Positions 684 through 62,199 of a DNA stretch of 64,000 nt are shown here, piece after piece. The stretch is from Acidimicrobiia bacterium (GTDB taxonomy: Bacteria; Actinomycetota; Acidimicrobiia; Spongiisociales; UBA11373). Position numbers and translations under genes: made by a program. Position 1 is the first letter of the stretch, and each line of letters opens with the position of its first letter. The stretch lies in the NCBI GenBank assembly GCA_041572755.1, contig JBFFRY010000010.1:2269-66268 (forward strand), written 5' to 3'. The notes beneath the pieces are model-generated. The model was not told the origin of the DNA, did not search any database, and worked only from the letters and a program-made list of their open reading frames with translations.

Positions 684-2270
684 ATGAACGCCAATTCCGA
701 GGACCACCGGCGCACCACGAGCGGCACCGAGATTTCGGTGTCGTACGGCCCCTCGCCGGGCTGGGATCACGATCGCGATCTCGGCGAACCAGGTTCCTTC
801 CCCTTCACCCGTGGCCCCTATCCGACCATGTACCGGGGCCGGCTGTGGACGATGCGCCAATACGCCGGTTTCGGCACTGCGGAGGCCACCAATGAGCGTT
901 TCCGGGCATTGCTCGAAGCCGGGCAGACCGGGCTTTCGGTCGCTTTCGACCTGCCCACCCAGATGGGCCTCGACTCCGACGATCCGACGGCGGCGGGGGA
1001 GGTCGGCAAGGTGGGCGTGGCGGTCGACACCATCGACGACGTTCGGAGGCTCTTCGAGGGAATCCCGCTCGGCGAAGTCTCCACCTCGATGACCATCAAC
1101 GCCACCGCGGCCGTGCTCCTGCTCCTCTACCAGCTGGTCGCCGAAGAGCAGGGAGTCCCGGCGGCTTCGCTGCGGGGCACCGTGCAGAACGACATCCTCA
1201 AGGAGTACGCCGCCCGGGGCACCTACATCTACCCGCCCCGCCCTTCGATGCGGCTGGTCACCGATCTCTTCGCCTACTGCCGGGAGGAACTCCCCGCCTG
1301 GAACACCATCTCGATCAGCGGGTATCACGTTCGGGAGGCCGGTTCCACCGCCGCCGAGGAGGTGGCGATCACCATCAGCAACGGACTCGCCTATGTGACC
1401 GCCGCCACCGAGGCCGGGCTCGATGTCGACCAGTTCGGGCCCCGGCTCTCCTTCTTCTGGAACGCCCACAGCAACCTGCTGGAAGAGGTGGCCAAGTTCC
1501 GGGCGGCCCGACGGCTGTGGGCCCGGCTCATGCGAGACCGGATGGGGGCGGCATCCCCGGAGGCCCAGAAGATGCGGTTCCACAGCCAGACGGCGGGAAG
1601 CACACTCACCGCCCAGCAGCCGGAGAACAACCTGGTGCGGACGGCGCTTCAGGCGCTGGCGGCGGTGCTCGGCGGGACCCAGTCGCTGCACACCAACGCC
1701 TTCGACGAGGCACTCGGACTCCCCACCGAACACTCGGCGATGCTGGCGCTGCGGACCCAGCAGCTCATCGCCCACGAGACCGGGGTCGCCGACACCGTGG
1801 ACCCACTGGCCGGCGCGTACTACGTGGAGTCGCTCACCGACGCCGTTGAAGAGGCCGCTCTCAGGATCATCGAAGAGATCGATGCCGCCGGGGGGGCGGT
1901 GGCCGCCATCGAAGCCGGGCTGGTGCAACGGATGATCGCCGACTCGGCGTACCGGGAGGCGCAACGGATCGAATCGGGAGAGTCGGTCGTGGTCGGCGTC
2001 AACCGTTACTTGGGCGATGAAACGCAGGACATCCCGACCACCGAGATCGATCCCGAGGTGGAGCGCAGCCAGGTCGCGACCCTCGCCGCAGTGCGATCCC
2101 GGCGCGACTCGGCGGCGGTGGCCGCCGCCCTCGACGAGGTGCGCCGCGTCGCCGAGGGCGAGGGGAACCTGCTGTATCCGATGAAGATGGCGCTGCAGCG
2201 CCAAGCGACCCTTGGTGAGGTGTCGGGGGTCCTCGCCGACGTCTTCGGCCGCTACCGGCCCGGCGGCTGA
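684..2270 (+). CDS. Methylmalonyl-CoA mutase, substrate-binding large subunit (split type, no B12-binding domain)
   Basis: Motifs [39 protein letters not shown] and [12 protein letters not shown]. The Tyr and Arg specificity residues are of MCM type. Confidence 0.9.
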
Positions 2271-2288: not shown

Positions 2289-3134
2289 ATGGCCATCCTG
2301 CTCGCCGTCCTCTCGTCCGTTGCCTTCGGCGGCGCCGACTTCCTCGGCGGACTCACCTCGCGCCGGGCGCCGGCCGTCACCGTGGTGTTCACCGCGCACC
2401 TCGCCGGGTTGGCGGTCATGGCGGTGGCCACCCCGCTGTGGGGCGCCGAAGGCCCGCTCGGGGCGGCGGTGCTGTGGGGGGCCGGCGCCGGTGCCTCCGG
2501 GGCGATCGGGCTGGTGGCGCTGTACCACGCCCTGGCCACCACCCGGTTCTCGATCGCCGCGCCGGCGGCGGCACTGTTCGGGGCGATCCTGCCGGTGGGC
2601 TACGGGTTGATGATCGGCGACCGCCCGACGCTCCTCGCCTGGTTGGGGGTGGCCGTGGCGATTCCCTCGCTGCTCCTGATCACCGCGACCCGACGCGGCG
2701 AAGGAAGCGCCGTGCGCACCGATGCGAGGCGCGCCGTGTTCTGGGGGGCGCTGGCCGGGCTCGGTTTTGCCCTGTTCGGGATCTTCATCTCCCGTTCCAG
2801 CGTCGACGCCGGCCTGTGGCCGCTGGTGGGGGCCCGGGCCGCCTCGATCCCGGTGGTCGCCGCCCTGGCGCTCGGTCTGAGGCGGCCCCTCCTCGCCACC
2901 CCACCGGCGCTGGGTCTCGCCCTGGTAGTGGGGGCGGCCGACATGGGGGCCAACATCCTCTACCTGGCGGCATTGCACCGCGGGCTCATCTCCCTGGTGG
3001 TGGTGGTCGGTTCGCTGTATCCGGCCTTCACCGTGATGCTGGCGAGGATCGTGCTGAACGAGCGCCTCAGTCGCCGCCAGGGGCTCGGCCTGATGCTCGC
3101 CGGGGCCGGGATCGTGCTAATCGCCGTCGCATAG
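2289..3134 (+). CDS. DMT/EamA family transporter
   Basis: About 10 hydrophobic segments, N-terminal FGGADFLGG and C-terminal SLYPAFTVMLARIVLNERL. Confidence 0.85.
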   Translation: MAILLAVLSSVAFGGADFLGGLTSRRAPAVTVVFTAHLAGLAVMAVATPLWGAEGPLGAAVLWGAGAGASGAIGLVALYHALATTRFSIAAPAAALFGAILPVGYGLMIGDRPTLLAWLGVAVAIPSLLLITATRRGEGSAVRTDARRAVFWGALAGLGFALFGIFISRSSVDAGLWPLVGARAASIPVVAALALGLRRPLLATPPALGLALVVGAADMGANILYLAALHRGLISLVVVVGSLYPAFTVMLARIVLNERLSRRQGLGLMLAGAGIVLIAVA

Positions 3135-3178
3135 GGGGCGCCGATAGCATGACCGCACCCTCTCGGATGGAGGCCCGC

Positions 3179-5134
3179 ATGCACGGCTACACCGGCAAGG
3201 TGCTCCACGTCGACCTCAGCGCCGGCTCCCTCGAGGTGGAAGAGCCGCCCGAGGAGTTCTACCGCACCTACGTCGGCGGCAGCGCCATGGGGCTCTACTA
3301 CCTGTTGAAGCACACCTCGGCGGGCGCCGACCCGCTCGGCCCGGAGAACACCCTCACACTCGCCCTGTCGGCCACCACCGGCGCCCCGATCGCCGGGCAG
3401 AGCCGCTGCACCGCCGTGGCCAAGTCGCCGCTGACCGGAGGCGTCGGGGATGCCCAGGCCGGGGGCTTCTGGCCGGCCGAGCTCAAGTTCGCCGGGTACG
3501 ACGCCATCGTGATCCGCGGCGAGTCCCCGAAGCCCGTGTACCTGTGGATCCACCGGGGCGGATACGAGCTCCGCGATGCCGGCCACCTGTGGGGCATGAC
3601 CACCAAGGAGGTCGACGCCGCCCTCGCCTCCGAACTCGGCGACGACCGCATCCACGTGGCCCAGGTCGGTCCCGCCGGTGAGAAGCTGGTCCGCTTCGCC
3701 GCCATCATGAACATGGCCAATCGGGCCCACGGCCGCACCGGCCTCGGCGCCGTGATGGGCTCCAAGAAGCTCAAAGCGATCGTCGTGCGGGGCGGCAAGA
3801 AGAAGCTCGACATGGCCGATCCCGAGGGACTGCGGGCCCTCATGCAGGCCTCGCTGCAGCCGATCCGGAAGGACCGCAGCGTCACCGGTCTGGCGATGTA
3901 CGGGACGATCGACATCCTGGAGAGCCAGGACGCAGTCGGCGGGCTGCCCACCCGCAACTACACGAGCGGGACGATGCAGGGCCGGGCTCCCCAAATCGGG
4001 GGCGAGGCCCTCTTCAACGATTGGCTGCGCGGCGCCGCCCAAGGAACTCAGGCCAAGCGGGGTCGGGACACTTGCTACTCGTGTGCGGTGCGCTGCAAGC
4101 GGGTGGTGGAAGCCGAGTGGCAGGACAAGATGCTCGATCCCCGCTCGGGTGGGCCGGAGTACGAGACGGCTTCGGTCTTCGGGTCGTATTGCGACATCGA
4201 CGACCTGGGCGCCGTCGCCTACGCCAACCAGCTGTGCAATCAGTACGGCGTCGACACCATCTCGGCGGGGGCCACGATGGCCTTCGCCATCGAGTGCTAC
4301 GAGAAGGGCCTCATCGACGCCTCCGACACCGGGGGCATCGAGCTCGGCTGGGGCAAGGCCGAGGCCATGATCGCCATGCTGGAAGCCACGCTGCGCCGGG
4401 AAGGCCTTGGTGATCTGCTCGCCGAGGGGTCGGCTCGGGCCGCCGAGCAGATCGGCGGCGGGGCCGCCGATCTGGTGGTCACCGTCAAGTCGCAAGAGCT
4501 CCCGGCCCACATGCCGCAGGTGAAGCGGTCGCTGGGGCTCATCTATGCGGTGAACCCCTTCGGGGCCGATCATCAGTCCAGCGAGCACGATCCCAGCTAC
4601 GAACCGGAGACCATCGAGGCTTCTCCCCACAAGTACGGCAAGAGGATGCGCAGCCTGGGGTTGACCGACCCGCAGGAGGCGATGGTGCTCAACGCCGAGA
4701 AGGTCCGTTTCGCCCTGCGGACCCAGTACGCCTATTCGGCGCTCGACACCCTCGACATCTGCCAGTTCGTGTTCGGGCCCGCCTGGCAGCCCATGAGCAT
4801 GGAGCAGCTTGCCGAGGCGTACACCGCGGTCACCGGCTGGCACGTCACTCTCGACGATCTCCTGATGATCGGCGCCCGCCGTCTCAACTTGCTGCGGGCG
4901 TTCAACGCCCGCGAAGGCATCACCAGGGATCACGACACCCTCCCCAAGCGGCTCTTCGACGAGCCTCTGCAGGGCGGAATGAGCGACGGAGTGACCGTGG
5001 ATCGCGCCGAGTTCGAGGCGGCTCTCGACATGTACTACGACGAGGCCGGGTGGGACCCGGCAACCGGCAACCCACCTCGCGAGCGGCTCGAGGCTCTCGA
5101 AATCGGTTGGGTGGCGGACGCCATCGGAGTGTGA
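3179..5134 (+). CDS. aor: Tungsten-dependent aldehyde:ferredoxin oxidoreductase family protein (AOR 1)
   Basis: MHGYTGKVLHVDLS, KSPLTGG, AGGFWPAELKFAGYD, GRTGLGAVMGSKKLKAI; Fe-S Cys in CYSCAVRC and DICQF; GPEYET. GGAGG precedes ATG 3179. Confidence 0.92.
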   Translation: MHGYTGKVLHVDLSAGSLEVEEPPEEFYRTYVGGSAMGLYYLLKHTSAGADPLGPENTLTLALSATTGAPIAGQSRCTAVAKSPLTGGVGDAQAGGFWPAELKFAGYDAIVIRGESPKPVYLWIHRGGYELRDAGHLWGMTTKEVDAALASELGDDRIHVAQVGPAGEKLVRFAAIMNMANRAHGRTGLGAVMGSKKLKAIVVRGGKKKLDMADPEGLRALMQASLQPIRKDRSVTGLAMYGTIDILESQDAVGGLPTRNYTSGTMQGRAPQIGGEALFNDWLRGAAQGTQAKRGRDTCYSCAVRCKRVVEAEWQDKMLDPRSGGPEYETASVFGSYCDIDDLGAVAYANQLCNQYGVDTISAGATMAFAIECYEKGLIDASDTGGIELGWGKAEAMIAMLEATLRREGLGDLLAEGSARAAEQIGGGAADLVVTVKSQELPAHMPQVKRSLGLIYAVNPFGADHQSSEHDPSYEPETIEASPHKYGKRMRSLGLTDPQEAMVLNAEKVRFALRTQYAYSALDTLDICQFVFGPAWQPMSMEQLAEAYTAVTGWHVTLDDLLMIGARRLNLLRAFNAREGITRDHDTLPKRLFDEPLQGGMSDGVTVDRAEFEAALDMYYDEAGWDPATGNPPRERLEALEIGWVADAIGV

Positions 5135-5136
5135 GG

Positions 5137-5613
5137 ATGCGGAGATCGACCCTCGTCGTGGCGGCGCTGGCGCTGGCGGTAGCGGCCTGCGGTGACGACG
5201 GCGGGGGCACGGGCGGCGGGGGCACGGGCGGCGGCGGATCGGGTGGCGGCGAACGTCCGAGCGACGGTGTGATCCTCACCGTCTACGTCGCCGATGAGGT
5301 GGTCGCCACCTGGACCCTCGCCCAACTGGAGGGGGCGGTCCCCTTCGTCGAGGCCGACATCGACGGCGAAGCCCAGCGGGGGCCGGGCCTCCTCGGCGTG
5401 CTGGATGCGTCGGGGGTCACCGACTGGGAGCGGGCCGAGGTGCTCGGCAAGGGTGAAGGGCGCTCCTTCGACATCGGGATCGACATCGAGGCCTCCGAGG
5501 TGGACGAAGGCTGGATCCTCGACGTGACCAATCGGGGGACCCTCAAGCTGGCCGCCGAGGAGCTTCCCCGAGAGCAGTGGGTCCGGGACGCCAGTGAGAT
5601 CCGTATCCCCTGA
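5137..5613 (+). CDS. Lipoprotein with Gly-rich linker and probable molybdopterin-oxidoreductase (sulfite oxidase-like) Moco-binding fold
   Basis: Lipobox VAAC after a hydrophobic signal; (GGGTG)n linker; pattern WTLAQL...GPGLLGVLDASG...ILD...GTLKLA...WVRDASEIRI resembles the Oxidored_molyb-like fold (inference). Confidence 0.65.
   Translation: MRRSTLVVAALALAVAACGDDGGGTGGGGTGGGGSGGGERPSDGVILTVYVADEVVATWTLAQLEGAVPFVEADIDGEAQRGPGLLGVLDASGVTDWERAEVLGKGEGRSFDIGIDIEASEVDEGWILDVTNRGTLKLAAEELPREQWVRDASEIRIP
5200..5237 (+). repeat. 15-nt tandem repeat GGCGGGGGCACGGGC (2 full copies plus a partial) encoding the Gly/Thr linker
   Basis: Seen directly at 5200-5214 and 5215-5229. Confidence 0.8.
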
Positions 5614-6313
5614 TCTGATCGTCGCCATCGACGACACCGACATGCCGGGGACCCGGGGGACCGGGCGTCTGGCCCGCCTGATCGCCGAGGAGCTCTCCCC
5701 GGTGGGCCGGTCCCTCGGGGTCACCCGACATCAGCTGTTCGAAGGTCCCGGGGTTCCCAAGACCCACCGCAACTCCGCGGCCGCCATCGGAATCGCCACC
5801 AGTGCCTCTCCCCAGGCGATCCTGGAGGATGCGGCCGCCATCGTGTCTCGAGAGCACGCCCCCGGTTCGGATCCGGGGGTGGCGGTCCTCAGCGGTTCGC
5901 CGGCTCCGGAACTGGTGACGTTCGGGAGACGGACCCAGGAGGGCTTGGTCGATCGGGACGAAGCCCTGCGGGTCGCCGCCGCGAGTGGGATGCTCGTGCG
6001 GGGATTGGCCGGCACCGGGGACGGGATCATCGGGTCGGTGGCGGCGGCGGCGCTGCGGGCCGACGGCAGCGACGGTCGCTACGTCGGTCTCCGCGGGATT
6101 CGCAGCCTGACGGGCACGATGACCGCGGCCGAGATCCTGAGCCGCTCCGACATCACCGCCGTGGTCGATCTCGCCACCGGTGAGTCGGTGCCGGGCGACG
6201 GTAGGCTCGACACCGGCGACTGGATCCGCCCCCGCCTCGTCGGGGGCCGTCCGGTCCTGATGGCCCGCCGCGACCGAGGAGCTTGGGTGAATGCGGACGC
6301 TCGCCCCAGCTAG
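5594..6313 (+). CDS. TiaS N-terminal (Thr-Cyt kinase)-like protein, COG1571/DUF1743-like, without tRNA-binding domains
   Basis: Motifs AIDDTD..GTRGTG, TRHQL...VPKTHRNSA and GDGIIGSVAA parallel TiaS GIDDTD, KTRGNGA and GRGIIGALAA. Only 239 aa. Confidence 0.7.
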   Translation: MRSVSPDLIVAIDDTDMPGTRGTGRLARLIAEELSPVGRSLGVTRHQLFEGPGVPKTHRNSAAAIGIATSASPQAILEDAAAIVSREHAPGSDPGVAVLSGSPAPELVTFGRRTQEGLVDRDEALRVAAASGMLVRGLAGTGDGIIGSVAAAALRADGSDGRYVGLRGIRSLTGTMTAAEILSRSDITAVVDLATGESVPGDGRLDTGDWIRPRLVGGRPVLMARRDRGAWVNADARPS

Positions 6314-6857
6314 AGACACGGCAAAGACGACCCGGCCGCTTCCGGTCGACCTGGCCCTGGCGGTACTGGTCGGCCTGGTGGCGGCGCTCGCCAAGCGCCA
6401 CCTCGACTTCCACCTCGGCGTGCCCGGTCATGCCGGGGTCGGTTGGATCGCCGCGCTGGTGGCCGGTGTCCTCGTCAACCCCCGGCGGGGAATGGCGGTC
6501 ATCGCCGGGCTGTCGATGGCGATGTGGGGGGTGCCGGTCGGGCTGGGGCACACCCTCGGCTACAACGCCGTCCTCTACGGGACCGCCGCCGGTGTGCTGG
6601 AACTCTCGGCCCTGCTCCGGCTCCCGCTGACCCGATGGTGGGGAGCGATGGCCGCCGGGGCGGCGGTCCACATCGCCAAGTACGCCTTCGTGTTCGGGCG
6701 AGCCTGGGTGTCGGGGATCATCCGCAACTTCGAGATCTACGGGATTGCCGCCGCCCTTCGCAACCATCTGATCTTCGGGTTGGCCGGGGGCCTGGCCGGC
6801 TGGGCCCTGTACCGGGGCGGCGCGGCCCTCATCGCCTTCCGCCGCGGCCGCACCTGA
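6291..6857 (+). CDS. Integral membrane protein resembling an ECF transporter S component
   Basis: About 5-6 TM helices in 188 aa, with HLGVPGHAGVGW motif and C-terminal HLIFGLAGGLAGW. Confidence 0.6.
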   Translation: MRTLAPARDTAKTTRPLPVDLALAVLVGLVAALAKRHLDFHLGVPGHAGVGWIAALVAGVLVNPRRGMAVIAGLSMAMWGVPVGLGHTLGYNAVLYGTAAGVLELSALLRLPLTRWWGAMAAGAAVHIAKYAFVFGRAWVSGIIRNFEIYGIAAALRNHLIFGLAGGLAGWALYRGGAALIAFRRGRT

Positions 6858-6867
6858 GGGGATCGCA

Positions 6868-8361
6868 GTGGTGACGGTCCGACTCCCCGACATGCTCCGC
6901 AAGTACGCCGGCGGCGCCGAATCGATCGACGTGGTTGGGAGCACCGTCGCCGAGGCCCTCCGGACGCTGGTCGAGGCGCATCCCGATCTCGGTGAGCGCC
7001 TGTTCGACGACCGGGGCATGGTGCGGGGCCACCTGTCGGTCTTCGCCGACGACCGGTTGGTTCCCCGGGAAGCAGCCGAGGAGGAGGCGGCGGCCGATCT
7101 CATCCGCATCCTGGTGGCGGTGGCCGGGGGGTCCGACATCCGCATGCGGGGCTTTCGGGACCGGGCCACGGTGGACGAGGCCCGGTCGGCGGCGCTCGAG
7201 GGGGTGGCGCCGCTCCCCGCCGAGCCGGTCCCGGTCACCGAATGCGTCGGTCGGGTGCTCGCCGCCGACGTGGTGAGCGAAGTCGATGTTCCGCCGTTCC
7301 GGCGGGCCACGATGGACGGGTACGCGGTCCGGGCCGCCGACACCTTCGGGGCGACGGCGTACCACCCGCTTCCTCTGGCCGTGATCGGAGAGTCGATGCC
7401 CGGTCAAGCAGCGGAGGCCCGAGTCGAGGCGGGGCAGGCGGTGAGGATCATGACCGGGGCTCCCCTCCCCGGCGGCGCCGATGCGGTGCTGCGGGCCGAA
7501 GACGCCGACTCGGGGGAGGGGACCATTGGGGCTCGTGCCCCCGTGCCGGAGGGGCGCAACGTGGGTCGGGTCGGCGAGGACGTCGCCGCCGGCACCGTCG
7601 TGCTGGAAGCCGGTCGCCACCTGCTGCCGCAGGATGCCGGGTTGCTGGCCAGCATCGGCCACGAGCCGGTCGGCGTCCATCGCCGGCCCCGCGTGCGGGT
7701 GATCGTGTCCGGCAACGAGCTGCTCCCACCCGGGGAGCGGCCGCGGGGCTCGCGGATCGTCGACAGCAACTCCCCGATGCTGGCGGCGCTGGTGGAACGG
7801 GACGGCGGGACGGTGGAGAGCGTGCGGCGTCTCCCCGACGGCCGGGAGCCGATGCGGGAGGCCCTCGCCGAAGGGGGCGCCGAGGTGATCATCACCGCCG
7901 GGGCGGTCTCGGTGGGCCGGGAGGACTACACCCCGCTCCTCGTGGCCGAGCTCGGGGAACTCCTCATCCACGGGGTGACGATGCGGCCCTCGTCGCCGAC
8001 CGGGGTGGGCCGGATTGGGGACACCCCGGTGCTGCTGCTGCCCGGCAACCCGGTGTCGTGCCTGGTGGCCTACGACTTCTTCGCCGGTCCGGTGATCCGG
8101 GTGCTCGGCGGTCTCCCCGCCGGTTGGCCCTATCGAACGCAGATGCTGCCGCTCGCCACGCGACTCGTGTCCCAGATCGGGCGCACCGACTACGCCCGGG
8201 TGGTGGTGGAGGGCGAGACGATCCGGCCCCTGGCGGTCACCGGGGCCTCGGTGCTGTCGTCGGTGACCCGGGCCGACGGTTTCGTGGTGGTGCCGGCCGG
8301 GCTGGAGGGATACCCCGAAGGTGCCGTCGTCGAGGTCCATCTCTACGGAGCGCGGCCGTGA
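6868..8361 (+). CDS. moeA: MoaD/ThiS sulfur carrier fused in frame to molybdopterin molybdo/tungstotransferase MoeA
   Basis: First ~88 aa are ubiquitin-like (VTVRLP..LRKYAGG...TVAEAL...VAVAGG). MoeA motifs follow: PPFRRATMDGYAV, IMTGAPLP, SGNEL, DSNSPML, LPGNPVS. Confidence 0.88.
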   Translation: MVTVRLPDMLRKYAGGAESIDVVGSTVAEALRTLVEAHPDLGERLFDDRGMVRGHLSVFADDRLVPREAAEEEAAADLIRILVAVAGGSDIRMRGFRDRATVDEARSAALEGVAPLPAEPVPVTECVGRVLAADVVSEVDVPPFRRATMDGYAVRAADTFGATAYHPLPLAVIGESMPGQAAEARVEAGQAVRIMTGAPLPGGADAVLRAEDADSGEGTIGARAPVPEGRNVGRVGEDVAAGTVVLEAGRHLLPQDAGLLASIGHEPVGVHRRPRVRVIVSGNELLPPGERPRGSRIVDSNSPMLAALVERDGGTVESVRRLPDGREPMREALAEGGAEVIITAGAVSVGREDYTPLLVAELGELLIHGVTMRPSSPTGVGRIGDTPVLLLPGNPVSCLVAYDFFAGPVIRVLGGLPAGWPYRTQMLPLATRLVSQIGRTDYARVVVEGETIRPLAVTGASVLSSVTRADGFVVVPAGLEGYPEGAVVEVHLYGARP

Positions 8362-10289
8362 AGCAGCGCCAGTTCCTCGAAGTGGTCGACGAGGCTGTTG
8401 CCCGCCGGCGCTTCGCGGCGGCATGCGCCCACCTGGAACCCCGGGTCGAGATGGCCTCGCTGGAAGCCGGTCTCGGGCGGGTCCTCGCCGGGGATGTGGT
8501 TGCTTCCGTCGATGTGACGCCGTTCGATCGGAGCAACGTCGACGGCTTTGCGGTGCGGGCCGCCGACACCTTTGGGGCCGAGGAGCTCAATCCGGTCACG
8601 CTGCATGTCGCCGACTGGTCGCTGGCCGCCGGGGACGCTCCCCCCGAGGGGCGGGACGTGAGTGCCGGCGAGGCGGTCGCCATCGCCACCGGGGCGGTGG
8701 TGCCGCGAGGGGCGGATGCCGTGGTGATGGTGGAGCACACCGAGTTGCAGGCCGAGGGTCTCCGGGTGCTGCGCCCGGTGGTGCCGGGGGACAACGTCAC
8801 GTTCGCCGGATCCGACATCGGCCGCGGAGAGGTGGTGGTGCGCCGCGGCGTCCGGCTCACCTCCCGGGAGACCGGGGTGCTGGCGGCAGTCGGGGCCTCG
8901 GAGGTCGGGGTGTATGCCCGTCCCCGGGTGGCGGTGGTGTCGACCGGCGACGAGATCGTCGCTCCGGGCCGGCCGCTCGAAATGGGTCACATCTACGACA
9001 GCAACCAGCGGATCCTGCTCGATGCGGTGGCCGAATTGGGATGCCAGCCGGTCGCCAAGGGGATCGTCCCCGACGACGAGCGGTTGCTCGAAGCCACCAT
9101 CGGCCCGCTGGTGGAGGGTCCCGACGCCGTCGACGTGGTGCTGTTGTCGGGGGGGACCTCGAAGGGCGAGGGTGATCTCAACGCCACCGTGGTGCACCGC
9201 CTCGCCGAACGTCATCCCGACTCCCCGGGGGTGGTGGTGCACGGGGTGGCCCTCAAGCCGGGCAAGCCGATCATGCTGGCGGTGGTGGCCGGGACCCCGT
9301 TGGTGGTGCTCCCCGGCTTCCCCACTTCGGCGATCTTCACGTTCTGGGAGTTCGTGGCACCGCTGCTGCGGCGCCTCTCGGGAGTGAGCGGCCGGGAGGC
9401 GGCCACGGTGAAGGCGGTGGCGCCGCTCCGGATCGCCTCGGTGCCGGGCCGTACCGAGTACTCACTGGTCGACCTCGTCGAGGGCCCGGAGGGCCTCGCC
9501 GCCTATCCGCTCGGAGCCGGCTCGGGAAGCGTGACCGCCCTGGGTCGGGCCGACGGTTTCGTACGCATTCCGGCCTCGGTCGAGTACCTCGAGACGGGCA
9601 CGACGGTCGAGGTGCGGCTCCTCAACCCGTCCGTCGAGCCGGCCGACCTGGTGGCCATCGGTAGCCACTGCATCGGGCTCGACCACCTGTTGGGGCTCCT
9701 CGCCGACCGGGGATACCGGGTCAAGATGATCCCGGTGGGCTCCACCGCCGGGCTGGCGGCGCTGGCCCGGGGCGAGGGCGACGTCGCCGGGGTTCACCTG
9801 CTCGATCCGGGGTCGGGGGAGTACAACACGCCGTTCCTCCCCGAAGGGGTGGCGATCATCGGTGGCTACGGGCGGCGTCAAGTGATCGCCCACCGGGCCG
9901 AGCACACCGGGCTCGGGGACACCCCGGAGGCGTTCCTCGAGGCGGCGAGCGAAAGGGATCTGCGGATGGTGAACCGCAACCCCGGCAGCGGCACCAGGGT
10001 GCTGATCGACGGGCTCCTCGGCGAGCACCGGCCCGACGGGTATCTGCACCAGGCCAAGACCCACCACGCGGTGGCCGCCGTCGTCGCCCAGGGCCGGGCC
10101 GACTGGGGGATCACTCTCGACACCGTGGCGGCCGGTGTCGACCTGCAGGCCATTCCGGTCGCCGATGAGCGCTACGACCTGGCGGTGGCCGAAACCCGGC
10201 GAGAGCGCCCGGCGGTGGCGGCGCTGGCGGAGCTGCTGGCCGATGCTGCGGTGCGGGAGGCGCTGGCCGGTCTCGGGTTCGTCTCCTAG
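8358..10289 (+). CDS. moeA: MoeA fused to a C-terminal periplasmic-binding-protein (LysR substrate-binding-like) domain
   Basis: GTG overlaps the upstream TGA. Motifs PFDRSNVDGFAV, STGDEI, SGGTSKG, LPGFPTSA, then PBP motifs GSHCIGLD, GSTAGL, AGVHLLD and NRNPGSGTR. Confidence 0.9.
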   Translation: MKQRQFLEVVDEAVARRRFAAACAHLEPRVEMASLEAGLGRVLAGDVVASVDVTPFDRSNVDGFAVRAADTFGAEELNPVTLHVADWSLAAGDAPPEGRDVSAGEAVAIATGAVVPRGADAVVMVEHTELQAEGLRVLRPVVPGDNVTFAGSDIGRGEVVVRRGVRLTSRETGVLAAVGASEVGVYARPRVAVVSTGDEIVAPGRPLEMGHIYDSNQRILLDAVAELGCQPVAKGIVPDDERLLEATIGPLVEGPDAVDVVLLSGGTSKGEGDLNATVVHRLAERHPDSPGVVVHGVALKPGKPIMLAVVAGTPLVVLPGFPTSAIFTFWEFVAPLLRRLSGVSGREAATVKAVAPLRIASVPGRTEYSLVDLVEGPEGLAAYPLGAGSGSVTALGRADGFVRIPASVEYLETGTTVEVRLLNPSVEPADLVAIGSHCIGLDHLLGLLADRGYRVKMIPVGSTAGLAALARGEGDVAGVHLLDPGSGEYNTPFLPEGVAIIGGYGRRQVIAHRAEHTGLGDTPEAFLEAASERDLRMVNRNPGSGTRVLIDGLLGEHRPDGYLHQAKTHHAVAAVVAQGRADWGITLDTVAAGVDLQAIPVADERYDLAVAETRRERPAVAALAELLADAAVREALAGLGFVS

Positions 10290-12103
10290 AGGAACCCCGC
10301 CGTCCGGGCCCGCTCATCGAGCGCGGCCATCACCTTCTCCCGCATCTCGATGAAGAACTCCGCCGAGGTGAGGTAGGGGAGGTCGATGTTGGGGTTGGGC
10401 TCGTAGGCGAGGGCGGGCAGAACGTAGTCGGCCTCGGTGAACCCCCGACGGCGCTCCACGGCGTAGCCGCGTAGGAAGGTGCGGGCCACGGTGTCCCGGA
10501 GCTGCTCGGTGGTGATGTCCAACTCGGTGGCGGTGCGCACGGCCCGGGCCGCCCATTGGTCGTCGATGTTGGCGAACTTGCACAGACCCAACAGGTCGTC
10601 GCGCAAGTAGAGCGGTCCCCGATTGGTGGTGGCATCGACCCAGTAGTCGATGCCCGTCTCCCGTTCGATCACCAGCAGGAAGAAGGTGCGCATCGACATG
10701 TGACCCCCGGCCAGTGCCCACGGATAGGCCGGATTGGTCTGCGGCAGGTAGGCGGGGTACTCGAGGCCCTTGCCGTGCATGGCGTAGGCGTCGTCGCCGG
10801 TCTGATCCGCCAGCCGCATCACCCCCCGGCCCACCTCGGGCAGCCGGCCTCGAGCCACCGTCTCGATCGCCGCTGTGGTGGCGGCGACATCTCCGAAGGC
10901 GAGCCCGTCGACGATCGGGTCGTCGGGGTGGCGGCGGTTGTGGTCCATCACGTAACCGAGGGTGACGCCCAGCGAGATCGAGTCCATGCCCAGCTCATCG
11001 GTCAGCTCGATGAGGTCCAGGGCGGCATCGATGTCGAAGATCCCCAGGTTGGAGGACAGCAGCGTGATCGGCTCGTAGTCCACTTTGGCCCGGAACGGCC
11101 CGGCCTGCCCGTCGACCTCGCTGTGGACGTTCTTGTGGCATTTGATGCCGCACAGGTGGCAACCCTCGGCCTTGACGACGTAGGGCCCTTCCTCCACGGC
11201 CGGGCGGAGCAGGGGCACGGAGACCTCGGTGCCGGTGGGGGCGAAGTTGAACTCGGGGAGGCTTCCCGCCTCCCGCATCATCTTCATGGTGCGCCACGTC
11301 CCACCCCGATCGTGGGGGAGGTCGCGGTAGCGGGCGCTCCCCTCCCCGAGGTTGATCTCCTTGTTGACCTCCTTGAGGCCTCGGGCCCGCACGGCCGGGT
11401 CGGGGCCGTCGGCGGCGATGGCCCACAGGTTCTTGGAGCCCATGACGCCGCCGTAGCCGCCCCGCCCGCAGAAGCGGGACTTGGGATCGCCGCTCTCCAG
11501 CTGGTTGTCGGTCGACAGCGCGATGGCGGCGTACCGAACGGCCTCCCAGTGCTCACCGGCCGGGCCGATCACCGCGAAGTGGGCCCCGGGATACCGGGCG
11601 TGGAGATCCTGGATCCGGTCGTTGACGCGGCGGCCCTCCAAGTCGCCGGCGTCGAGGAAGTCGAAGGCGGCGGGCCCCCCGGGGCCTTCCGGGTCGCCGG
11701 CCGGGGTGAGATGCAGCAGGGTGGGGCGGGGGGCCCTTCCGGTGAAGACGACGTCGTCGATGCCGAGGGCCCGCAGCTTGGTGCCGAAGTGGCCGCTGCC
11801 GCTGGACCACATCAGCCCCGGTGCTCCCGACCGGGAGGTCTTGAGGGGCGAGTAACCGTGGAAGAAGACCCGCAGGCCGGTCATCACCCGGGTCCCCGAC
11901 AGCATCCCCAGGTTCATCATCAGCGGCGACTCGGGAGCGTAGGGATCGGCGACATCGAACTCGGCGAGGTACTTGGTGGCTCGGGCGATGCCGCCGAGGA
12001 CGTCCTCGAAGTCACGGCAGGGCAGGCGCTCGAAACGGACGGCGCCCCTGGCCAGATCGACGTGGTAGCGGTTGAAGCTGAAGTCGGTGGCCGGCCGTGT
12101 CAT
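10286..12103 (-). CDS. Second, divergent aldehyde:ferredoxin oxidoreductase family protein (AOR 2)
   Basis: YSPLK, GRGGYGGVMGSKNL, CHLCGIKC, DYEP, DELGMDSISLG, GLCKF. ATG 12103 lies 6 nt after CATAAT. Confidence 0.88.
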   Translation of the reverse strand: MTRPATDFSFNRYHVDLARGAVRFERLPCRDFEDVLGGIARATKYLAEFDVADPYAPESPLMMNLGMLSGTRVMTGLRVFFHGYSPLKTSRSGAPGLMWSSGSGHFGTKLRALGIDDVVFTGRAPRPTLLHLTPAGDPEGPGGPAAFDFLDAGDLEGRRVNDRIQDLHARYPGAHFAVIGPAGEHWEAVRYAAIALSTDNQLESGDPKSRFCGRGGYGGVMGSKNLWAIAADGPDPAVRARGLKEVNKEINLGEGSARYRDLPHDRGGTWRTMKMMREAGSLPEFNFAPTGTEVSVPLLRPAVEEGPYVVKAEGCHLCGIKCHKNVHSEVDGQAGPFRAKVDYEPITLLSSNLGIFDIDAALDLIELTDELGMDSISLGVTLGYVMDHNRRHPDDPIVDGLAFGDVAATTAAIETVARGRLPEVGRGVMRLADQTGDDAYAMHGKGLEYPAYLPQTNPAYPWALAGGHMSMRTFFLLVIERETGIDYWVDATTNRGPLYLRDDLLGLCKFANIDDQWAARAVRTATELDITTEQLRDTVARTFLRGYAVERRRGFTEADYVLPALAYEPNPNIDLPYLTSAEFFIEMREKVMAALDERARTAGFL

Positions 12104-12173
12104 GGCCCGATTATGGCCGTCGGCCGGCGGCGCCCGAAGCGGCGTCGCGGGGGGCGTTACAGTCGAGCCATCC

Positions 12174-13292
12174 ATGAGCGTCATCGAGCGGGTCGAGGCG
12201 AGAGCGGTGCGGGTGCCCGTGGAGCGCCCGGTCTCGATGGCGAACCGCACCTTCTCGGGTCGGGACTTCCTTCTGGTGCGGGTCCACGCCTCGGGGGCCG
12301 CCGGGCTCGGATTCGCCTACATCGGTCACGCCGGGGCCCGGCTCGCCGCCGCCGCCGTGCGGGAACTGTTGGCCCCCCTGGTGGTGAGCGCCGACCGCGG
12401 GGACGGCGAGGGGATCTGGGATCGCATGTTCCGGGCCACGTTGCTGCACGGTCGGGCCGGGGTGGTGATGCGGGCCCTCAGTGCCGTCGACATCGCACTG
12501 TGGGAACTCAACGCCCGGATCGAGGGAGTTCCGCTCTCCGAGGCCTTGGGCGGCCGCAAGGCGGAGACGGTGCCCTGCTACGCCTCCGGGGGCTACTACG
12601 CCGCCGGCAGGACCCTCGACGATCTGGCGGCCGAGGTGTCCGGGTACCTCGAGGCCGGCTATCGGGCGGTCAAGATCAAGGTGGGGCGTCTCTCGCCGAG
12701 TGAAGACGGGGCTCGCATTGCCGCCTGTCGGGAGGCGATCGGGCCCGACGTCCCGCTGTTGTTGGATGCCAACAACGCCTGGGAGTCGGTGTCGCAGGCC
12801 GTGGAACACCTGCGGGCCTGGGAGCGTCACGATCCCTATTGGATCGAGGAACCGTTCCTCCCCGACGACCTGGCGTCGCTCATCCCGCTGGCCCGATCCA
12901 CGCCGATCCCGATCGCCACCGGCGAGATCGGCTCGACCCGATGGCATTTCCGGGATCTGATGGAGACCGGGGCGGTCTCGTTCGTCAACCCCGACGCTCC
13001 GGTGCTTGGGGGACTCACCGAGTACCGCCGAGTCGACGAGATGGCGGCGTCGTACGGGGTCACCGTGTGCCCCCACTGGTTCGACACCCTTCACGTCCAC
13101 ACCGTGGCGGCCTCGGCGGCGGCCCACATGGTGGAGGTGTTCCCCGACGACGAGGTCTTCAACTTCCGGCGCCTCGTGGATGCCGGGCCGGAACTGCTCG
13201 ACGGGGAGCTGAAGGTACCGGCCGGACCGGGGCTCGGAGTCGACCTCGACCTCGAGGCCGTGGAGCGGTACGCCCTGGAACGTTGGGCATGA
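12174..13292 (+). CDS. Mandelate racemase/muconate lactonizing enzyme family protein
   Basis: SAVDIALW, YASGGYY, KIKVG, LDANNAW, WIEEP, ATGE, PHW, PGLG. Confidence 0.9.
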   Translation: MSVIERVEARAVRVPVERPVSMANRTFSGRDFLLVRVHASGAAGLGFAYIGHAGARLAAAAVRELLAPLVVSADRGDGEGIWDRMFRATLLHGRAGVVMRALSAVDIALWELNARIEGVPLSEALGGRKAETVPCYASGGYYAAGRTLDDLAAEVSGYLEAGYRAVKIKVGRLSPSEDGARIAACREAIGPDVPLLLDANNAWESVSQAVEHLRAWERHDPYWIEEPFLPDDLASLIPLARSTPIPIATGEIGSTRWHFRDLMETGAVSFVNPDAPVLGGLTEYRRVDEMAASYGVTVCPHWFDTLHVHTVAASAAAHMVEVFPDDEVFNFRRLVDAGPELLDGELKVPAGPGLGVDLDLEAVERYALERWA

Positions 13293-15914: not shown

Positions 15915-17429
15915 ATGGTGACGAGGCTCAAGCCGTTCATCGGCGGCGAGTGGCGGGAGTCCGCCACCGACACCTACATGCCGGTGACCAACAGCAGCAC
16001 CGGGGAGGTGATGGCCGAGGCGCCCCAGTGCACCATCGATGAGGTGAACGGCGCCGTCGAGGCGGCCGCGGCGGCCTTCCCGGCATGGCGGGACACCCCG
16101 GTGACCCAGCGGGTTCAGGTGATGTTCCGCCTCAAAGCGCTTCTCGAAGACCAGGTTCACGACCTGGCCGTGCTGCTCTCCACCGAGATGGGCAAGTCGT
16201 ACTCCGAGGCCCGGGGTGACGTGCTGAAGGCGATCGAGGTCGTCGAGCTGGCCTGTGCGGTACCGGTCACGATGATGGGCGACTCGCTCATGAACGTCTC
16301 CGACGGCTTCGACACCGTCACCTACCGGGAGCCCCTCGGGGTGTTCGCCGGGATCGCACCGTGGAACTTCCCGGCGATGATCCCCATGGGCTGGATGGCC
16401 CCTCTGGCGATCACCACCGGCAACACGTTCGTCCTCAAGGCGGCCAGCTTCGTGCCGCAGACCGCCATGCGGATCGCCGAGTTGTGGGAGGAGGCGGGGG
16501 TCCCGCCGGGGGTCCTCAACGTGGTGACCGCCTCCCGTCACGAGGCCGAGATCCTGCTGGAGCACCCCGATGTGAGGGGCGTCTCCTTCGTCGGCTCCGA
16601 GAAGGTCGGGCGCCACGTCTATGCCACTGCGGCTTCGCACGGCAAGCGGGTCCAGGCGCTCACCGAAGCCAAGAACCATGCCCTCATCATGCGGGATGCT
16701 CCGATCATCGCCACCGCCCAGCGGGTCATCAACTCGGCCTTCGGCTGCGCCGGGGAGCGGTGCATGGCGCTGCCGGCGATCGCCGTGGAGGAGCAGATCG
16801 CCGACGATCTCGTCGAGGCGATCGTCGAGCTGTCCGACCAGCGCAAGATGGGCCCCGCCTGGGAGGAGAGCACCGAGTTGGGTCCGCTGGTCAACGAGGA
16901 GCACCTCAACTTCGTCAGCGATTGGGTGGAGCGTTCGATGGCCGAAGGTGCCGTCATGGCTCGCGACGGCCGCAAGCCGGACGTCCCCGGCTACGAGAAC
17001 GGCTACTTCATGGGCCCGACGGTGTTCGACCACGTCACGCCCGACATGCGCTGCGGCTGGGAGGAGGTCTTCGGTCCCGTCCTGTATGTGAAGCGGGTCA
17101 AGTCTTTCGAGGAGGGCATCGAGACGATCAACAACAGCCGCTATGCCAACGGGGCGTCGATCTTCACCGAGAGCGGGCACTACGCCCGCGAGTTCGCCCG
17201 GCGGATCGATGCCGGCATGGTCGGCGTCAACGTGGGGATCCCGGTGCCGATCTCGGTGTTCCCCTTCTCGGGCCACAAGAACAGCTTCTTCGGCGACCTG
17301 CACGTCATGGGGCGCGACGGGGTGGCCTTCTTCACCGAGACCAAGGCGGTCACCTCCTACTGGTACAGCGAGGCCGACAAGGCCGGCGAGAAGGTGGGCA
17401 CCTGGGAGGGAACCATCACCCGGACGTGA
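15915..17429 (+). CDS. mmsA: CoA-acylating (methyl)malonate-semialdehyde dehydrogenase
   Basis: PWNFPAMIP, SFVGS, AKNH, SAFGCAGERCMA, EEVFGP, GVNVGIPVP, FFGDLH. Strong GAGGAGG RBS. Confidence 0.92.
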   Translation: MVTRLKPFIGGEWRESATDTYMPVTNSSTGEVMAEAPQCTIDEVNGAVEAAAAAFPAWRDTPVTQRVQVMFRLKALLEDQVHDLAVLLSTEMGKSYSEARGDVLKAIEVVELACAVPVTMMGDSLMNVSDGFDTVTYREPLGVFAGIAPWNFPAMIPMGWMAPLAITTGNTFVLKAASFVPQTAMRIAELWEEAGVPPGVLNVVTASRHEAEILLEHPDVRGVSFVGSEKVGRHVYATAASHGKRVQALTEAKNHALIMRDAPIIATAQRVINSAFGCAGERCMALPAIAVEEQIADDLVEAIVELSDQRKMGPAWEESTELGPLVNEEHLNFVSDWVERSMAEGAVMARDGRKPDVPGYENGYFMGPTVFDHVTPDMRCGWEEVFGPVLYVKRVKSFEEGIETINNSRYANGASIFTESGHYAREFARRIDAGMVGVNVGIPVPISVFPFSGHKNSFFGDLHVMGRDGVAFFTETKAVTSYWYSEADKAGEKVGTWEGTITRT

Positions 17430-18102
17430 GGAACATCTCCTGGGTGACGGTGGTCCCCGGGGGAACGACGAGGAGATCGGGGTCGTCGCCGTCGGCGGCG
17501 GCCCCGACGAGTTTCTCCAGGAGCGTCGGATCGCCGAGGTACTCGTCGTACGCCATGCCCCACCGGTCGCGGCAGAACTGCGCCACCGGTGCGGCCAACG
17601 CCCGCGACCGCTCCATCTCCTCCTCCGAGAATGCGATGACTCGAAGCCTGCGATAGGAGCCGTAGACCTTGTCGATGAGACGCTCGGCCCGGGTCGTTCC
17701 GTACTCCTCCTCGTAGCGGTGGAAGGTGGTCAGGGGATCGTCCCCGCTCTCCAGCCAGCCCCGGGTGAGGTAGTAGGTTCCCGGTTCGGCGTAGAACTCC
17801 TCCTCGTAACGTTGCTGGGAACCCAGCATCATCCCGATGCAGTCGTGGGTCCGGGGGAAGATCAGCGTGTGCGGTCCCGACTCCACGCCGACCACCCCGT
17901 TGCCGCACAGCCCGTAGCCGACCACGACCTGGGAGGGCGCCGGGAGCGCATCGAGATGCCGTTGCAGCGCCGGAGCCATCTCGACGGGCCGAGTGTGGAG
18001 GCCGTAGTCGAGGTAGGTCGCCTCGGTATCGTCGGGGAGGAGCGGCCCGAGGAGATCTCGGAGAACCCGACAGGAGAGCACGGCGGTGCTCGGCGCCGTC
18101 AT
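17416..18102 (-). CDS. DUF1638 domain protein
   Basis: LSCRVL, LDYGLH..P..M, GYGLCGNG, HDCIGMMLGS, PGTYYLTRGW. Confidence 0.8.
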   Translation of the reverse strand: MTAPSTAVLSCRVLRDLLGPLLPDDTEATYLDYGLHTRPVEMAPALQRHLDALPAPSQVVVGYGLCGNGVVGVESGPHTLIFPRTHDCIGMMLGSQQRYEEEFYAEPGTYYLTRGWLESGDDPLTTFHRYEEEYGTTRAERLIDKVYGSYRRLRVIAFSEEEMERSRALAAPVAQFCRDRWGMAYDEYLGDPTLLEKLVGAAADGDDPDLLVVPPGTTVTQEMFLTSG

Positions 18103-18722
18103 TCGGCGGTGAGCCGGGCGGCCAGGTCGACGGCCTGCTTGGCGTTGTCGGCGTAGCCATCCGCTCCGAACCGCTCGCCTGCGCCGGGGGTGACGGCGGC
18201 GCCACCGACCATCACCGGTGGGGCCGGGTCGAGTTCCTTGAGCATTGCGATCGTCTCTTCCATGCGGGCCAGGGCTGTGGTGAGCAGGGCCCCGAGCCCG
18301 ACCACGTCGGGAGCGTGGTCCCGAACCGCCTCGAGGAACCGTGCCGCCGGCACGTCGACGCCCAGGTCGATGACCCGGAACCCGGCTCCCTCGAGCATGG
18401 TGATCACCAGGTTCTTGCCGATGTCGTGGAGGTCGCCCTGCACGGTGCCGATCACCACCGTCCCGCTTCCGGGTCCGGCATCGGCGGCGAGCAGCGGCTT
18501 GAGGACCTCCATCGCCTGCTCCATGGCATCGGCGGCGATGAGCATCTCGGGGATGAAGTACTCGCCTCGATCGAAGCGCTCGCCGACCTCCCGCAGCCCG
18601 GCGGTGAGCGCCTCGTCGGTGATCAACTGGGGATCGACACCGGCCGCCAGGGCATCCTCGACGAGCGCCACCGTTTGCTGCCCGTCACCGATGATGAGCG
18701 CTCGGCGAATCTCCTCCAGCAT
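18099..18722 (-). CDS. Corrinoid (B12-binding) protein of a methyltransferase system (MtbC/MtaC-like)
   Basis: Cap domain (VGERFDRGEYFIPEML) plus GTVQGDLHDIGKNLV, DLGVDVP and VMVGGA. Alternative TTG start at 18731. Confidence 0.9.
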   Translation of the reverse strand: MLEEIRRALIIGDGQQTVALVEDALAAGVDPQLITDEALTAGLREVGERFDRGEYFIPEMLIAADAMEQAMEVLKPLLAADAGPGSGTVVIGTVQGDLHDIGKNLVITMLEGAGFRVIDLGVDVPAARFLEAVRDHAPDVVGLGALLTTALARMEETIAMLKELDPAPPVMVGGAAVTPGAGERFGADGYADNAKQAVDLAARLTAE

Positions 18723-18732
18723 GAACGGCAAC

Positions 18733-29651: not shown

Positions 29652-29726
29652 CGGCCGGAGGGTAATCATGCGCCTTTCGATAGGCATGCCCTCTGTTTCA
29701 CAAGCAGGAGGCGAAGCGGGGTCTCG

Positions 29727-59507: not shown

Positions 59508-59565
59508 TCCGGGCCCGGGGTTCGAGACCTCTTTCGCAGTACCCCCGCATCGATATCATGGCGCC

Positions 59566-62199
<2,634 letters not shown>

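Follow-up and report, generated by a model that had tools for sequence, protein, structure and literature searches.

Three adjacent genes in a 64,000-nucleotide stretch of contig JBFFRY010000010.1 from an Acidimicrobiia bacterium (the whole stretch is called the window) encode a lipoprotein, a protein resembling the kinase domain of TiaS, and a membrane protein resembling the S components of energy-coupling factor (ECF) importers. The trio lies between a gene of the tungsten (W)-type aldehyde:ferredoxin oxidoreductase (AOR) family, AOR1, and two moeA paralogues. We propose, giving the idea a little less than an even chance, that the trio is an optional accessory module for tungsten acquisition with a shared ATP-dependent step in the cytoplasm. 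The proposal draws on the company that these genes keep across genomes and on the predicted folds of their products, which are encoded as follows.

5137-5613, plus strand: lipoprotein of 158 amino acids (aa), with a signal peptide, a lipobox, and a SUOX/PruR-like domain
5594-6313, plus strand: TiaS-TCKD-like protein of 239 aa, recognized from sub-cut-off TiaS matches and a family profile
6291-6857, plus strand: ECF S-component-like membrane protein of 188 aa, recognized from a structure model

All three are real and conserved genes. The G+C content at third codon positions (GC3) ranges from 0.84 to 0.89 in the frames of the membrane protein and the TiaS-like protein, the two of the trio that the list covers. 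From AOR1 through the second moeA gene, the junctions measure +2, −20, −23, +10, and −4 nt, as the preliminary description had it when it reported overlaps or gaps of 10 nt or less; the operon then meets a convergent second AOR gene, AOR2, in a 4-nt overlap.

Relatives were collected through the TiaS-like protein, which yielded 52 loci carrying at least eight phylum-level labels. The genomes are mostly metagenome-assembled genomes (MAGs), among which close kin are not independent. Genes in the loci were called with a heuristic of length and GC3 that missed some genes (modB, for example), and the context labels were assigned by similarity to a small set of reference proteins. The order lipoprotein, TiaS-like protein, S-like protein is kept in 24 of the 52 loci, all of them labelled Acidimicrobiia, Chloroflexota, or unclassified; the loci closest to the window carry Acidimicrobiia labels. 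MoaD-MoeA, MoeA-PBP, and/or AOR genes are present on the same DNA in 17 of the 52. Five of 301 genomes in an even sample of the class carry the TiaS-like gene and nine carry AOR; four carry both. Clusters of AOR1, MoaD/MoeA, and MoeA/PBP without the trio were found in three related genomes (G066, contig C159; G154, C50; G198, C2; loci L062 to L064), two of which also have AOR2 (L062 and L063), and in genome G130 the trio is present with no AOR nearby. Because syntenic AOR-MoeA-MoeA clusters occur without it, the trio appears to be an insertable cassette. It is strongly linked to the W-enzyme cluster and is not required by that cluster.

Outside the 24 loci with a lipoprotein, the partnership of the other two genes persists. 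The S-like gene adjoins the TiaS-like gene in 42 of the 52 loci (41 by open reading frame [ORF] and L010 by tblastn), and 18 loci have the S-like gene without the lipoprotein gene. In 12 of the 52, the same operon also encodes a TonB-dependent receptor, the ATPase pair EcfAA′, and EcfT/CbiQ (L030, L033, L035, L037, L040, L041, L047, L048, L051, L053, L054, and L032, which is cut at a contig end). These ECF-type operons are labelled Desulfobacteraceae, Myxococcota, Spirochaetaceae, Poribacteria, Methylococcaceae, and Pseudomonadota. EcfAA′ of L054, from a Poribacteria MAG, passes the cut-off of ECF_ATPase_1 (TIGR04520; 327 versus 315 bits). Typing of the TonB receptors gave weak generic matches, the nearest to the B12-receptor model, far below its cut-off.

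Several of these loci are marked by further W or molybdenum (Mo) genes. TupA, TupBC, regulators combining helix-turn-helix (HTH) and PBP_like domains, FdhD, or FDH occur in seven loci beyond the 17 with AOR or MoeA. The HTH_17 plus PBP_like regulators are encoded in L032, L037, and L038, and we take them to resemble the tungstate-responsive regulator TunR, a name that reportedly goes back to Kazakov and colleagues in 2013. FdhD is encoded in L041, FDH in L052, and TupA-family binding proteins in L032 and L054. In L054, tandem Moco/W riboswitches (molybdenum or tungsten cofactor; 1440-1565 and 1719-1843, plus strand; 50.4 and 58.9 bits against a gathering score of 36) are followed on one strand by a 96-aa ORF, tupA (8.9e-75), a 94-aa ORF, the TonB receptor gene, ecfAA′, ecfT, and the TiaS-like and S-like genes. 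This was the only one of 15 loci searched with such a riboswitch; none was found in the other 14, and a riboswitch search of the window found no Moco riboswitch. Taken with the 17 AOR/MoeA loci, these results support the link between the trio and Mo/W enzymes on which the preliminary description depended, an association that recurs across genomes and in several phyla.

The TiaS-like gene also occurs within operons for the tungstate importer TupABC. Locus L044 has the order tupA, TiaS-like, tupB, tupC. In a sample of 301 Desulfobacterota genomes, 21 had the TiaS-like gene, and 18 further Desulfobacterota loci with flanks were characterized by local profile searches against reference proteins of the annotated loci. 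Tup genes lay nearby in eight, four were ECF-type (one with a TunR-like regulator), two had AOR, and four had no recognized marker. L100 and L101 have a contiguous tupA-tupA-tupB-tupC-TiaS-like arrangement. An S-like profile found nothing in five Tup-type carriers and detected its target in all five ECF-type carriers used as positive controls. TupB was found elsewhere in three of five ECF-type carriers, which does not decide the matter. Since the TiaS-like gene stands in or beside tupABC without an S-like gene, it appears to be tied to tungsten supply and not to re-activation of an imported pterin.

The same relationship is visible at the level of whole genomes. Fifty carrier genomes were scored for strong TupA, defined as a match to NF041772 at E ≤ 1e-50. 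Strong TupA was present in all 10 carriers without an S-like gene, in 2 of the 24 carriers with lipoprotein and S (6 more had weak matches, 1e-20 to 1e-30), in none of the 4 carriers with S only, and in 7 of the 12 ECF-type carriers; the counts come from MAGs and related genomes, partly track phylogeny, and are not a statistical test. Either S or strong TupA was present in 50 of 50 carriers. Within one Acidimicrobiia genus, the trio-less genome G066 has a TupA match of 2e-60, whereas the trio-bearing genomes G291 and G297 reach only ~1e-29. In Desulfobacterota, TupA was found in 17 of 19 further carriers versus 167 of the 301 sampled genomes. The largely complementary distribution of S and TupA among carriers points to a shared metal cargo. 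Two tupA genes are broken by stop codons (G198:C4:456591-457293, TGA, and G335:C2:1016031-1016802, TAG) and may be pseudogenes or MAG errors.

The lipoprotein consists of a signal peptide, a lipobox (VAAC, with Cys18), a Gly-rich linker, and a β-rich domain of 115 aa (residues ~44 to 158), and it is predicted to be exported and lipid anchored. The structure model has a pLDDT above 90 over residues 45 to 158. VIA-align matched it to SoxC (2xts_C, Z 13.5), SorA (2blf_A, 12.7), PruR (7rkb_A, 12.3; 7kp2_A, 12.2), SorT (11.4), nitrate reductase (11.1), chicken sulfite oxidase (10.1), and YedY (9.2), down to 8s5s_A (8.4), with 113 to 120 residues aligned within this SUOX/PruR group. Scores then drop to Z 5.1 for the next, unrelated row. 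Foldseek placed PruR at the top (E 1.5e-4 to 7.8e-4 for the top hits, and up to 1.9e-3 over the PruR matches). The model thus assigns the lipoprotein a Cys-less SUOX/PruR ligand-binding fold.

This likeness was visible in structure comparison. No Pfam family, Oxidored_molyb (PF00174) included, matched the lipoprotein at E ≤ 0.1; NCBIfam gave two sub-cut-off matches to the signal peptide and lipobox alone (E ~0.03), and nothing among PDB sequences was better than E 2.3. Pfam, PDB sequences, and relatives gave no sequence bridge to SUOX or PruR. The family is small (126 relatives among 7999 candidates scored), and none of the 120 relatives listed has a functional name or a Pfam domain. In an alignment of 25 sequences, four Trp, two Arg, and one Glu residue are invariant and no Cys column is conserved. 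The lipobox Cys18 is the single Cys of the protein, so the lipoprotein cannot ligate Mo as SUOX enzymes do, and it is not an enzyme of the SUOX family. Because the fold binds pterins elsewhere, the ligand may be a pterin or metal-pterin. We propose the lipoprotein as an extracytoplasmic capture protein.

The S-like protein was modeled with six helices (pLDDT 93.5, pTM 0.88). Its best VIA-align match was 5edl_A (Z 17.2, rmsd 3.4 Å, 169 of 188 residues aligned), and ranks 1 to 15 of 48,161 chains were all ECF S components. Foldseek likewise gave 5edl as its best match, a weak one (E 0.041). No Pfam or NCBIfam family matched at E ≤ 0.1, so the protein belongs to no curated S-component family; Atlas leads were ABC_cobalt, present in 31% of one cluster, and TrpP, in 20% of a second. 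A conserved L-x-x-P-G-H motif lies in the loop between helices 1 and 2, and His47 is the sole nearly invariant polar residue of the family. The modeled fold is that of an ECF S component. Independent support for a true S component comes from the relatives that share operons with EcfAA′ and CbiQ/EcfT, and we propose the protein as the translocator. In L053 (8727-11498, plus strand), the S-like domain forms the N terminus of a 923-aa frame that runs into ABC_membrane and ABC_tran domains; either the ORF was called too long or an S protein is fused there to an ABC half-transporter of the exporter type.

The TiaS-like protein matched NCBIfam TiaS at 2.4e-7 (29.7 bits against a cut-off of 600, with the match ending at about position 150 of 422 of the model) and Pfam TiaS_TCKD at 0.005, also below cut-off. 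It matched methanogenesis marker 11 (TIGR03280) at 8.8e-10 (38.2 versus 255.8 bits) over profile positions 135 to 283 of 292 only, the C-terminal half. A family profile built from 27 sequences met the TiaS structures 3au7, 3amt, and 4rvz at 5.5e-9 to 1.6e-8 over residues 6 to 156. Its top structure match, better than TiaS itself, was 3u02_A (1.8e-12), a 252-aa structural-genomics protein whose entry title reads "putative transcription-associated protein TFIIS" (the title gives only this TFIIS-like name; we take the protein to be from Pyrococcus, a tungsten-using host). Invariant in the family are D13, D14, T15, and D16, which align with the DDTD of TiaS, and G22, T23, and G24, of which T23 matches the leading Thr of the CTT motif in TiaS. 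We take these residues to correspond to the ATP/Mg site and the autophosphorylated Thr18 of TiaS.

The family is bacterial and comprises 536 relatives at E ≤ 0.001 among 8000 candidates scored. In Atlas clusters, TiaS_TCKD is annotated in 13 to 44% of members and TiaS_FLD in 11% of one cluster, and the C-terminal third of the protein may be TiaS-FLD-like. OB and zinc-ribbon domains have no room, because the protein has 239 aa and the TiaS match spans only ~150 residues. The TiaS-like protein thus keeps the DDTD and Thr motifs of the ATP-cleaving TiaS kinase domain without the tRNA-binding domains, and we propose it as the cytoplasmic ATP-using partner of tungsten import. In four Dehalococcoidia loci (L031, L034, L039, and L046), the TiaS-like gene follows a small gene for a Zincin_1 metallopeptidase-like protein and has no S neighbor; in L034, ZnuA and a cation-efflux gene are nearby as well. 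Zincin_1 was not matched in the other three S-less Dehalococcoidia loci (L042, L043, and L045).

The preliminary description had read the three products, from sequence, as a surface lipoprotein like a Moco binder with no Cys after the lipobox, a stand-alone enzyme like the TiaS kinase, and an S-component-like membrane protein. Structure comparison and the family profile agree with it on all three. It had also noted that no early-pathway or tup genes occur in the window, and family scans found no moaA, moaC, moaE, moeB, mogA, or tup gene there. This absence says little, because moaA, moaC, moaE, and a mogA-like gene sit elsewhere in the genome.

The window belongs to contig C10; the genome spans 2.47 Mb at 99% completeness. 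Contig C5 carries moaC, followed directly by a mogA/moaB-like domain (MoCF_biosynth), and a third, canonical moeA; moaA is on C13 and moaE on C21. Among all carriers, MoaC is present in 46 of 50 genomes. The suggestion in the preliminary description that carriers might lack moaAC was therefore not borne out, and carriers as cofactor auxotrophs are ruled out. Also ruled out is the TiaS-like enzyme as a MogA/MoaB substitute in this genome, since the MoCF_biosynth domain follows moaC. A modA-modB pair on C8 rules out the trio as the sole oxyanion route here. The PBP_like_2 match proved to be PstS within a pst operon.

In the module that we propose, the lipoprotein would capture a scarce tungsten species outside the cell and hand it to the S-like protein, which would move it through the membrane. 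An EcfAA′-EcfT energizer of its own and a TonB-dependent receptor are encoded together with this S protein in Desulfobacterota, Myxococcota, Spirochaetota, Poribacteria, and others. The present genome has no EcfT apart from the cobalt CbiQ; here the S protein would either work alone or borrow the cobalt module. The TiaS-like enzyme would carry out an ATP-dependent cytoplasmic step needed with either importer, S/ECF or TupABC, acting on the imported species or on its transfer to MoeA. As a guess at its chemistry, phosphorylation or adenylylation might activate or trap the oxyanion, by analogy with MoSto, an ATP-dependent Mo/W storage protein. To serve the two AORs, the MoeA paralogues would next load W onto molybdopterin that the cell has synthesized de novo, and the first of them, the MoaD-like fusion, is the proposed metal insertase receiving the product of the module. 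Tungstate would be the simplest cargo. A W- or Mo-loaded pterin would fit too and is the cargo to which the lipoprotein fold points; it would reconcile that fold with the Tup data, and we count it within the same proposal.

A number of observations weigh against tungsten acquisition as the role of the trio. No W/Mo gene was recognized in 27 of the 52 loci (some contigs are short) or in 7 of the 18 further Desulfobacterota loci, three of which are ECF-type operons, and in seven Dehalococcoidia loci the TiaS-like gene stands in unrelated surroundings. The S-less carriers are mostly Dehalococcoidia, which makes the complementarity with TupA partly phylogenetic, and the two routes sometimes coexist: strong TupA in ECF-type carriers has been noted above, and in L013 a tupB-tupC-tupA-like set lies ~1.6 kb upstream of the AOR-trio cluster. 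The present genome already has an oxyanion importer in modA-modB. It has no recognizable dedicated EcfT or EcfA for the S protein, its sole CbiQ belonging to a cobalt cbiM-cbiQ set on another contig. The lipoprotein is folded like pterin and Moco binders and not like TupA/ModA-type binding proteins, the TonB receptors of the ECF-type operons speak against plain tungstate, and we know of no ECF S component with an oxyanion cargo.

A bolder version of the proposal holds that stand-alone TCKD-like proteins are the missing ATP-dependent step of W-cofactor supply. They would have been recruited both by TupABC and by a new ECF system whose S protein would be the first ECF importer for a group 6 metal species or an intact metal-pterin, served by a SUOX-fold lipoprotein in monoderm-type lineages and by a TonB receptor in diderms. 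In this strong form the idea is doubtful. If it is true, the closeness of the TiaS-like protein to 3u02 and marker 11 over TiaS hints that the same step exists in archaeal tungsten users.

The main alternative, a serious though less likely rival, is pterin salvage. The lipoprotein would bind a metal-free pterin (cPMP, molybdopterin, or a dephosphorylated or oxidized derivative), the S protein would import it, and the TiaS-like enzyme would re-phosphorylate or adenylylate it for loading by MoeA. Vitamins and cofactors are usually salvaged by ECF S components paired with TonB receptors, the trio stands directly ahead of two moeA genes, and L054 has its Moco/W riboswitches upstream. In L013 the tup-like set and the trio occur together and look complementary rather than redundant. 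The four invariant Trp residues, with Arg and Glu, would suit ring stacking in the lipoprotein. Its fold is shared by the Moco domains of SUOX proteins and by PruR, which binds neopterin in crystals (PMC11194511). Against these points stand MoaC in nearly all carriers and the full de novo route of this genome: carriers make their own pterin, so salvage would not be needed, although it is often found alongside synthesis. Molybdopterin and Moco in free form are highly sensitive to oxygen. The TiaS-like gene also lies within tupABC operons in genomes where the S profile found nothing and its control succeeded throughout; in addition, S and TupA are largely complementary among carriers. Of the capture, import, and re-activation of a pterin proposed in the preliminary description, the binding of a pterin is allowed by the lipoprotein fold. 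Re-activation by the kinase-like enzyme fits less well with a gene that stands beside tupABC in the absence of S.

The trio might also import an unrelated micronutrient (Co, Ni, Zn, or thiamine or another vitamin precursor) with the help of a trapping kinase and stand near W/Mo genes by chance. The best S match, 5edl, is a group I S component that we take to be the thiamine-related YkoE; the Atlas leads name ABC_cobalt and TrpP, and a sole nearly invariant polar residue, His47, recalls metal-binding S components. The Dehalococcoidia loci with Zincin_1, together with ZnuA and the cation-efflux gene of L034, would agree with such a cargo. Chance is nevertheless a poor account of AOR, MoeA, Tup, PBP_like regulators, FDH, FdhD, and the Moco/W riboswitch recurring in several phyla, or of S or TupA in every carrier, and the lipoprotein fold is unlike those of metal-cation or thiamine binders. 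We regard this explanation as improbable.

Very improbable, in our view, is a sensor of the PruR-DcpA kind, in which the lipoprotein would report external pterin and the membrane protein would control the kinase-like protein, regulating maturation of W enzymes. TiaS has reportedly been described as a dual protein and RNA kinase, going by the title of the 2011 Terasaka paper. PruR is among the best structural matches of the lipoprotein. It is described as a small, secreted, Cys-less SUOX-fold protein that acts by binding a membrane protein, the product of an adjacent gene, at its periplasmic portion (PMC11194511). The membrane partner in the trio, however, has a complete transporter S-component fold, and in other phyla its gene keeps company with those for EcfAA′, EcfT, and a TonB receptor. 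Pfam and NCBIfam scans found no DNA-binding or second-messenger domain in the trio, and the lipoprotein is missing from the 18 loci with S noted above. Finally, it is scarcely credible that the TiaS-like protein is a nucleic-acid modifier functionally unrelated to its neighbors: it resembles the TiaS kinase domain and keeps the catalytic motifs, but it is bacterial, has no room within 239 aa and a ~150-residue match for an OB fold or zinc ribbon, overlaps both neighboring genes (by 20 and 23 nt), and has transporters as conserved partners.

The genes flanking the trio, in a window of ~69% G+C, are as follows.

2289-3134, plus strand: EamA-type permease, upstream of AOR1
3149-5134 (start approximate), plus strand: AOR1, W-type AOR family (Pfam AFOR_N, 9.7e-74; AFOR_C, 8.6e-116)
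6868-8361, plus strand: MoaD/ThiS-like domain plus MoeA (Pfam MoeA_N, 4.2e-46; MoCF_biosynth, 6.1e-27; MoeA_C, 1.9e-13; ThiS, 0.0017; NCBIfam SAMP1, 9e-9)
8358-10289, plus strand: MoeA plus PBP_like, a C-terminal fusion (NCBIfam PRK14498, 2e-204, above cut-off; Pfam PBP_like, 2.9e-41)
10286-12250, minus strand: AOR2, divergent AOR family, converging on the operon (Pfam AFOR_N, 2e-36; AFOR_C, 5.8e-40)

AOR1 is the first gene of the cluster and the presumed user of the cofactor. Its start was read from upstream sequence as the ATG at 3149 (domain scans took 3170). The true start of AOR2 is probably near 12106, because its relatives align only from residue ~46 to 52 (tblastn). In L013, AOR1 (5635-7592, plus strand) reads as two overlapping ORFs and may be a pseudogene or reflect a MAG sequencing error. 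The N-terminal 88 residues of the first MoeA (6868-7131) form a β-grasp domain like those of MoaD, ThiS, and SAMP1, with a GG end, fused in frame. Related loci retain the fusion; just the MoaD-like part (query residues 1 to 89) was found in L015 and L020, ahead of AOR2. As the GG tail lies inside the fusion, no activation would be possible without cleavage.

Several other features of the window were recorded. SecA is encoded by two adjacent ORFs (59416-61194 and 61210-62199, plus strand), the first with the DEAD, PP-bind, and part of the P-loop regions and the second with the P-loop end and the wing/scaffold domain; a frameshift, a stop codon within the frame, or faulty assembly could account for the split. 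A corrinoid methyltransferase set (17416-19776, minus strand: DUF1638, a B12-binding protein, and a URO-D/MtaA-like methyltransferase) lies downstream of genes for enolase-superfamily, DAO, aminotransferase, and aldehyde dehydrogenase proteins. RTX-type calcium-binding nonapeptide repeat proteins are encoded at 27564-29687 (minus strand) and on contig C5 of the same assembly (G000:C5; L060, 9860-10843); they are probably surface proteins with no relation to the trio.

The composition of the trio matches no system described in the family models or found by our literature search, and on this point the preliminary description, which knew of no such pathway, was right. The literature search found no ECF or TiaS-like component in W/Mo supply and no bacterial Moco importer; subscription journals were mostly outside its coverage. 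Papers on cobalt ECF importers and on the riboswitch regulon do not bear on the module. To our knowledge, three ABC importers and the MoeA paralogues are all that is described of how cells take up W and separate it from Mo, and we know of no described ATP-dependent step between import and insertion and of no ECF-type route. The trio offers a new extracellular use of the sulfite oxidase fold, a kinase-like enzyme related, among studied proteins, only to one that modifies tRNA, and an S component. If it supplies tungsten or ready-made cofactor, it could aid heterologous production of W enzymes (AOR and W-FDH), which is now limited by cofactor. W/Mo use would then also have to be read differently from the genomes of sediment and groundwater bacteria.

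Each part of the trio has a known counterpart from which it differs. PruR is a periplasmic pterin-binding protein of Agrobacterium and other Proteobacteria with a degenerate SUOX fold and no Cys; neopterin is held between a Tyr and a Trp with a hydrogen bond from an Asn, and a Pro-Trp motif replaces the Cys (PMC11194511). The lipoprotein is likewise small, exported, Cys-less, and encoded beside a membrane partner. In contrast with PruR, it is lipid anchored on a Gly-rich tether and has no detectable sequence similarity to PruR, and its gene neighbors AOR and MoeA in Acidimicrobiia and Chloroflexota. Its partner is an S-like transporter rather than a DcpA-type cyclase/phosphodiesterase, and, unlike in the pruR-dcpA operon, its neighbors are the TiaS-like and S-like genes in all 24 loci. 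The SUOX family (sulfite oxidase, SorA, SorT, SoxC, YedY/MsrP, and nitrate reductase) shares the Moco-domain fold with the lipoprotein, which has no Mo-ligand Cys, no match to PF00174, and no dimerization or heme domain.

With TiaS, the TiaS-like protein shares the TCKD region of ~150 residues with its DDTD motif and the Thr aligned with the opening position of CTT; it differs in the absence of the OB fold and zinc ribbon, in its sub-cut-off scores, and in having transporters as partners instead of tRNA genes. The protein in 3u02 is, like it, a short stand-alone form. W-selective MoeA paralogues have been published, and the pathway given in the available text of that paper has no TiaS-like protein (PMC13197769). 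TupABC, WtpABC, and ModABC share the genomic company of the trio (AOR, FDH, MoeA, PBP_like regulators, and the Moco/W riboswitch), whereas the trio belongs to another transporter class, uses another binding-protein fold, and has an ATP-using enzyme as an extra partner.

The closest parallel is the ECF importers themselves. The S-like protein shares its six-helix fold with 14 solved S components (Z 17.2 to 9.2; 5edl, ThiT, RibU, FolT, BioY, NikM, and CbiM are examples), and its relatives in diderms are encoded with a duplicated EcfA ATPase and CbiQ/EcfT. It differs from these systems in always being paired with a TiaS-like gene, joined by a SUOX-fold lipoprotein in Acidimicrobiia and Chloroflexota, in its tungsten/molybdenum genomic context, and in matching no curated S-component family; we know of no ECF system for tungsten or molybdenum. 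By analogy, the module may work like a group I/II ECF importer to which a surface binder and an enzyme for trapping or activation in the cytoplasm have been added.

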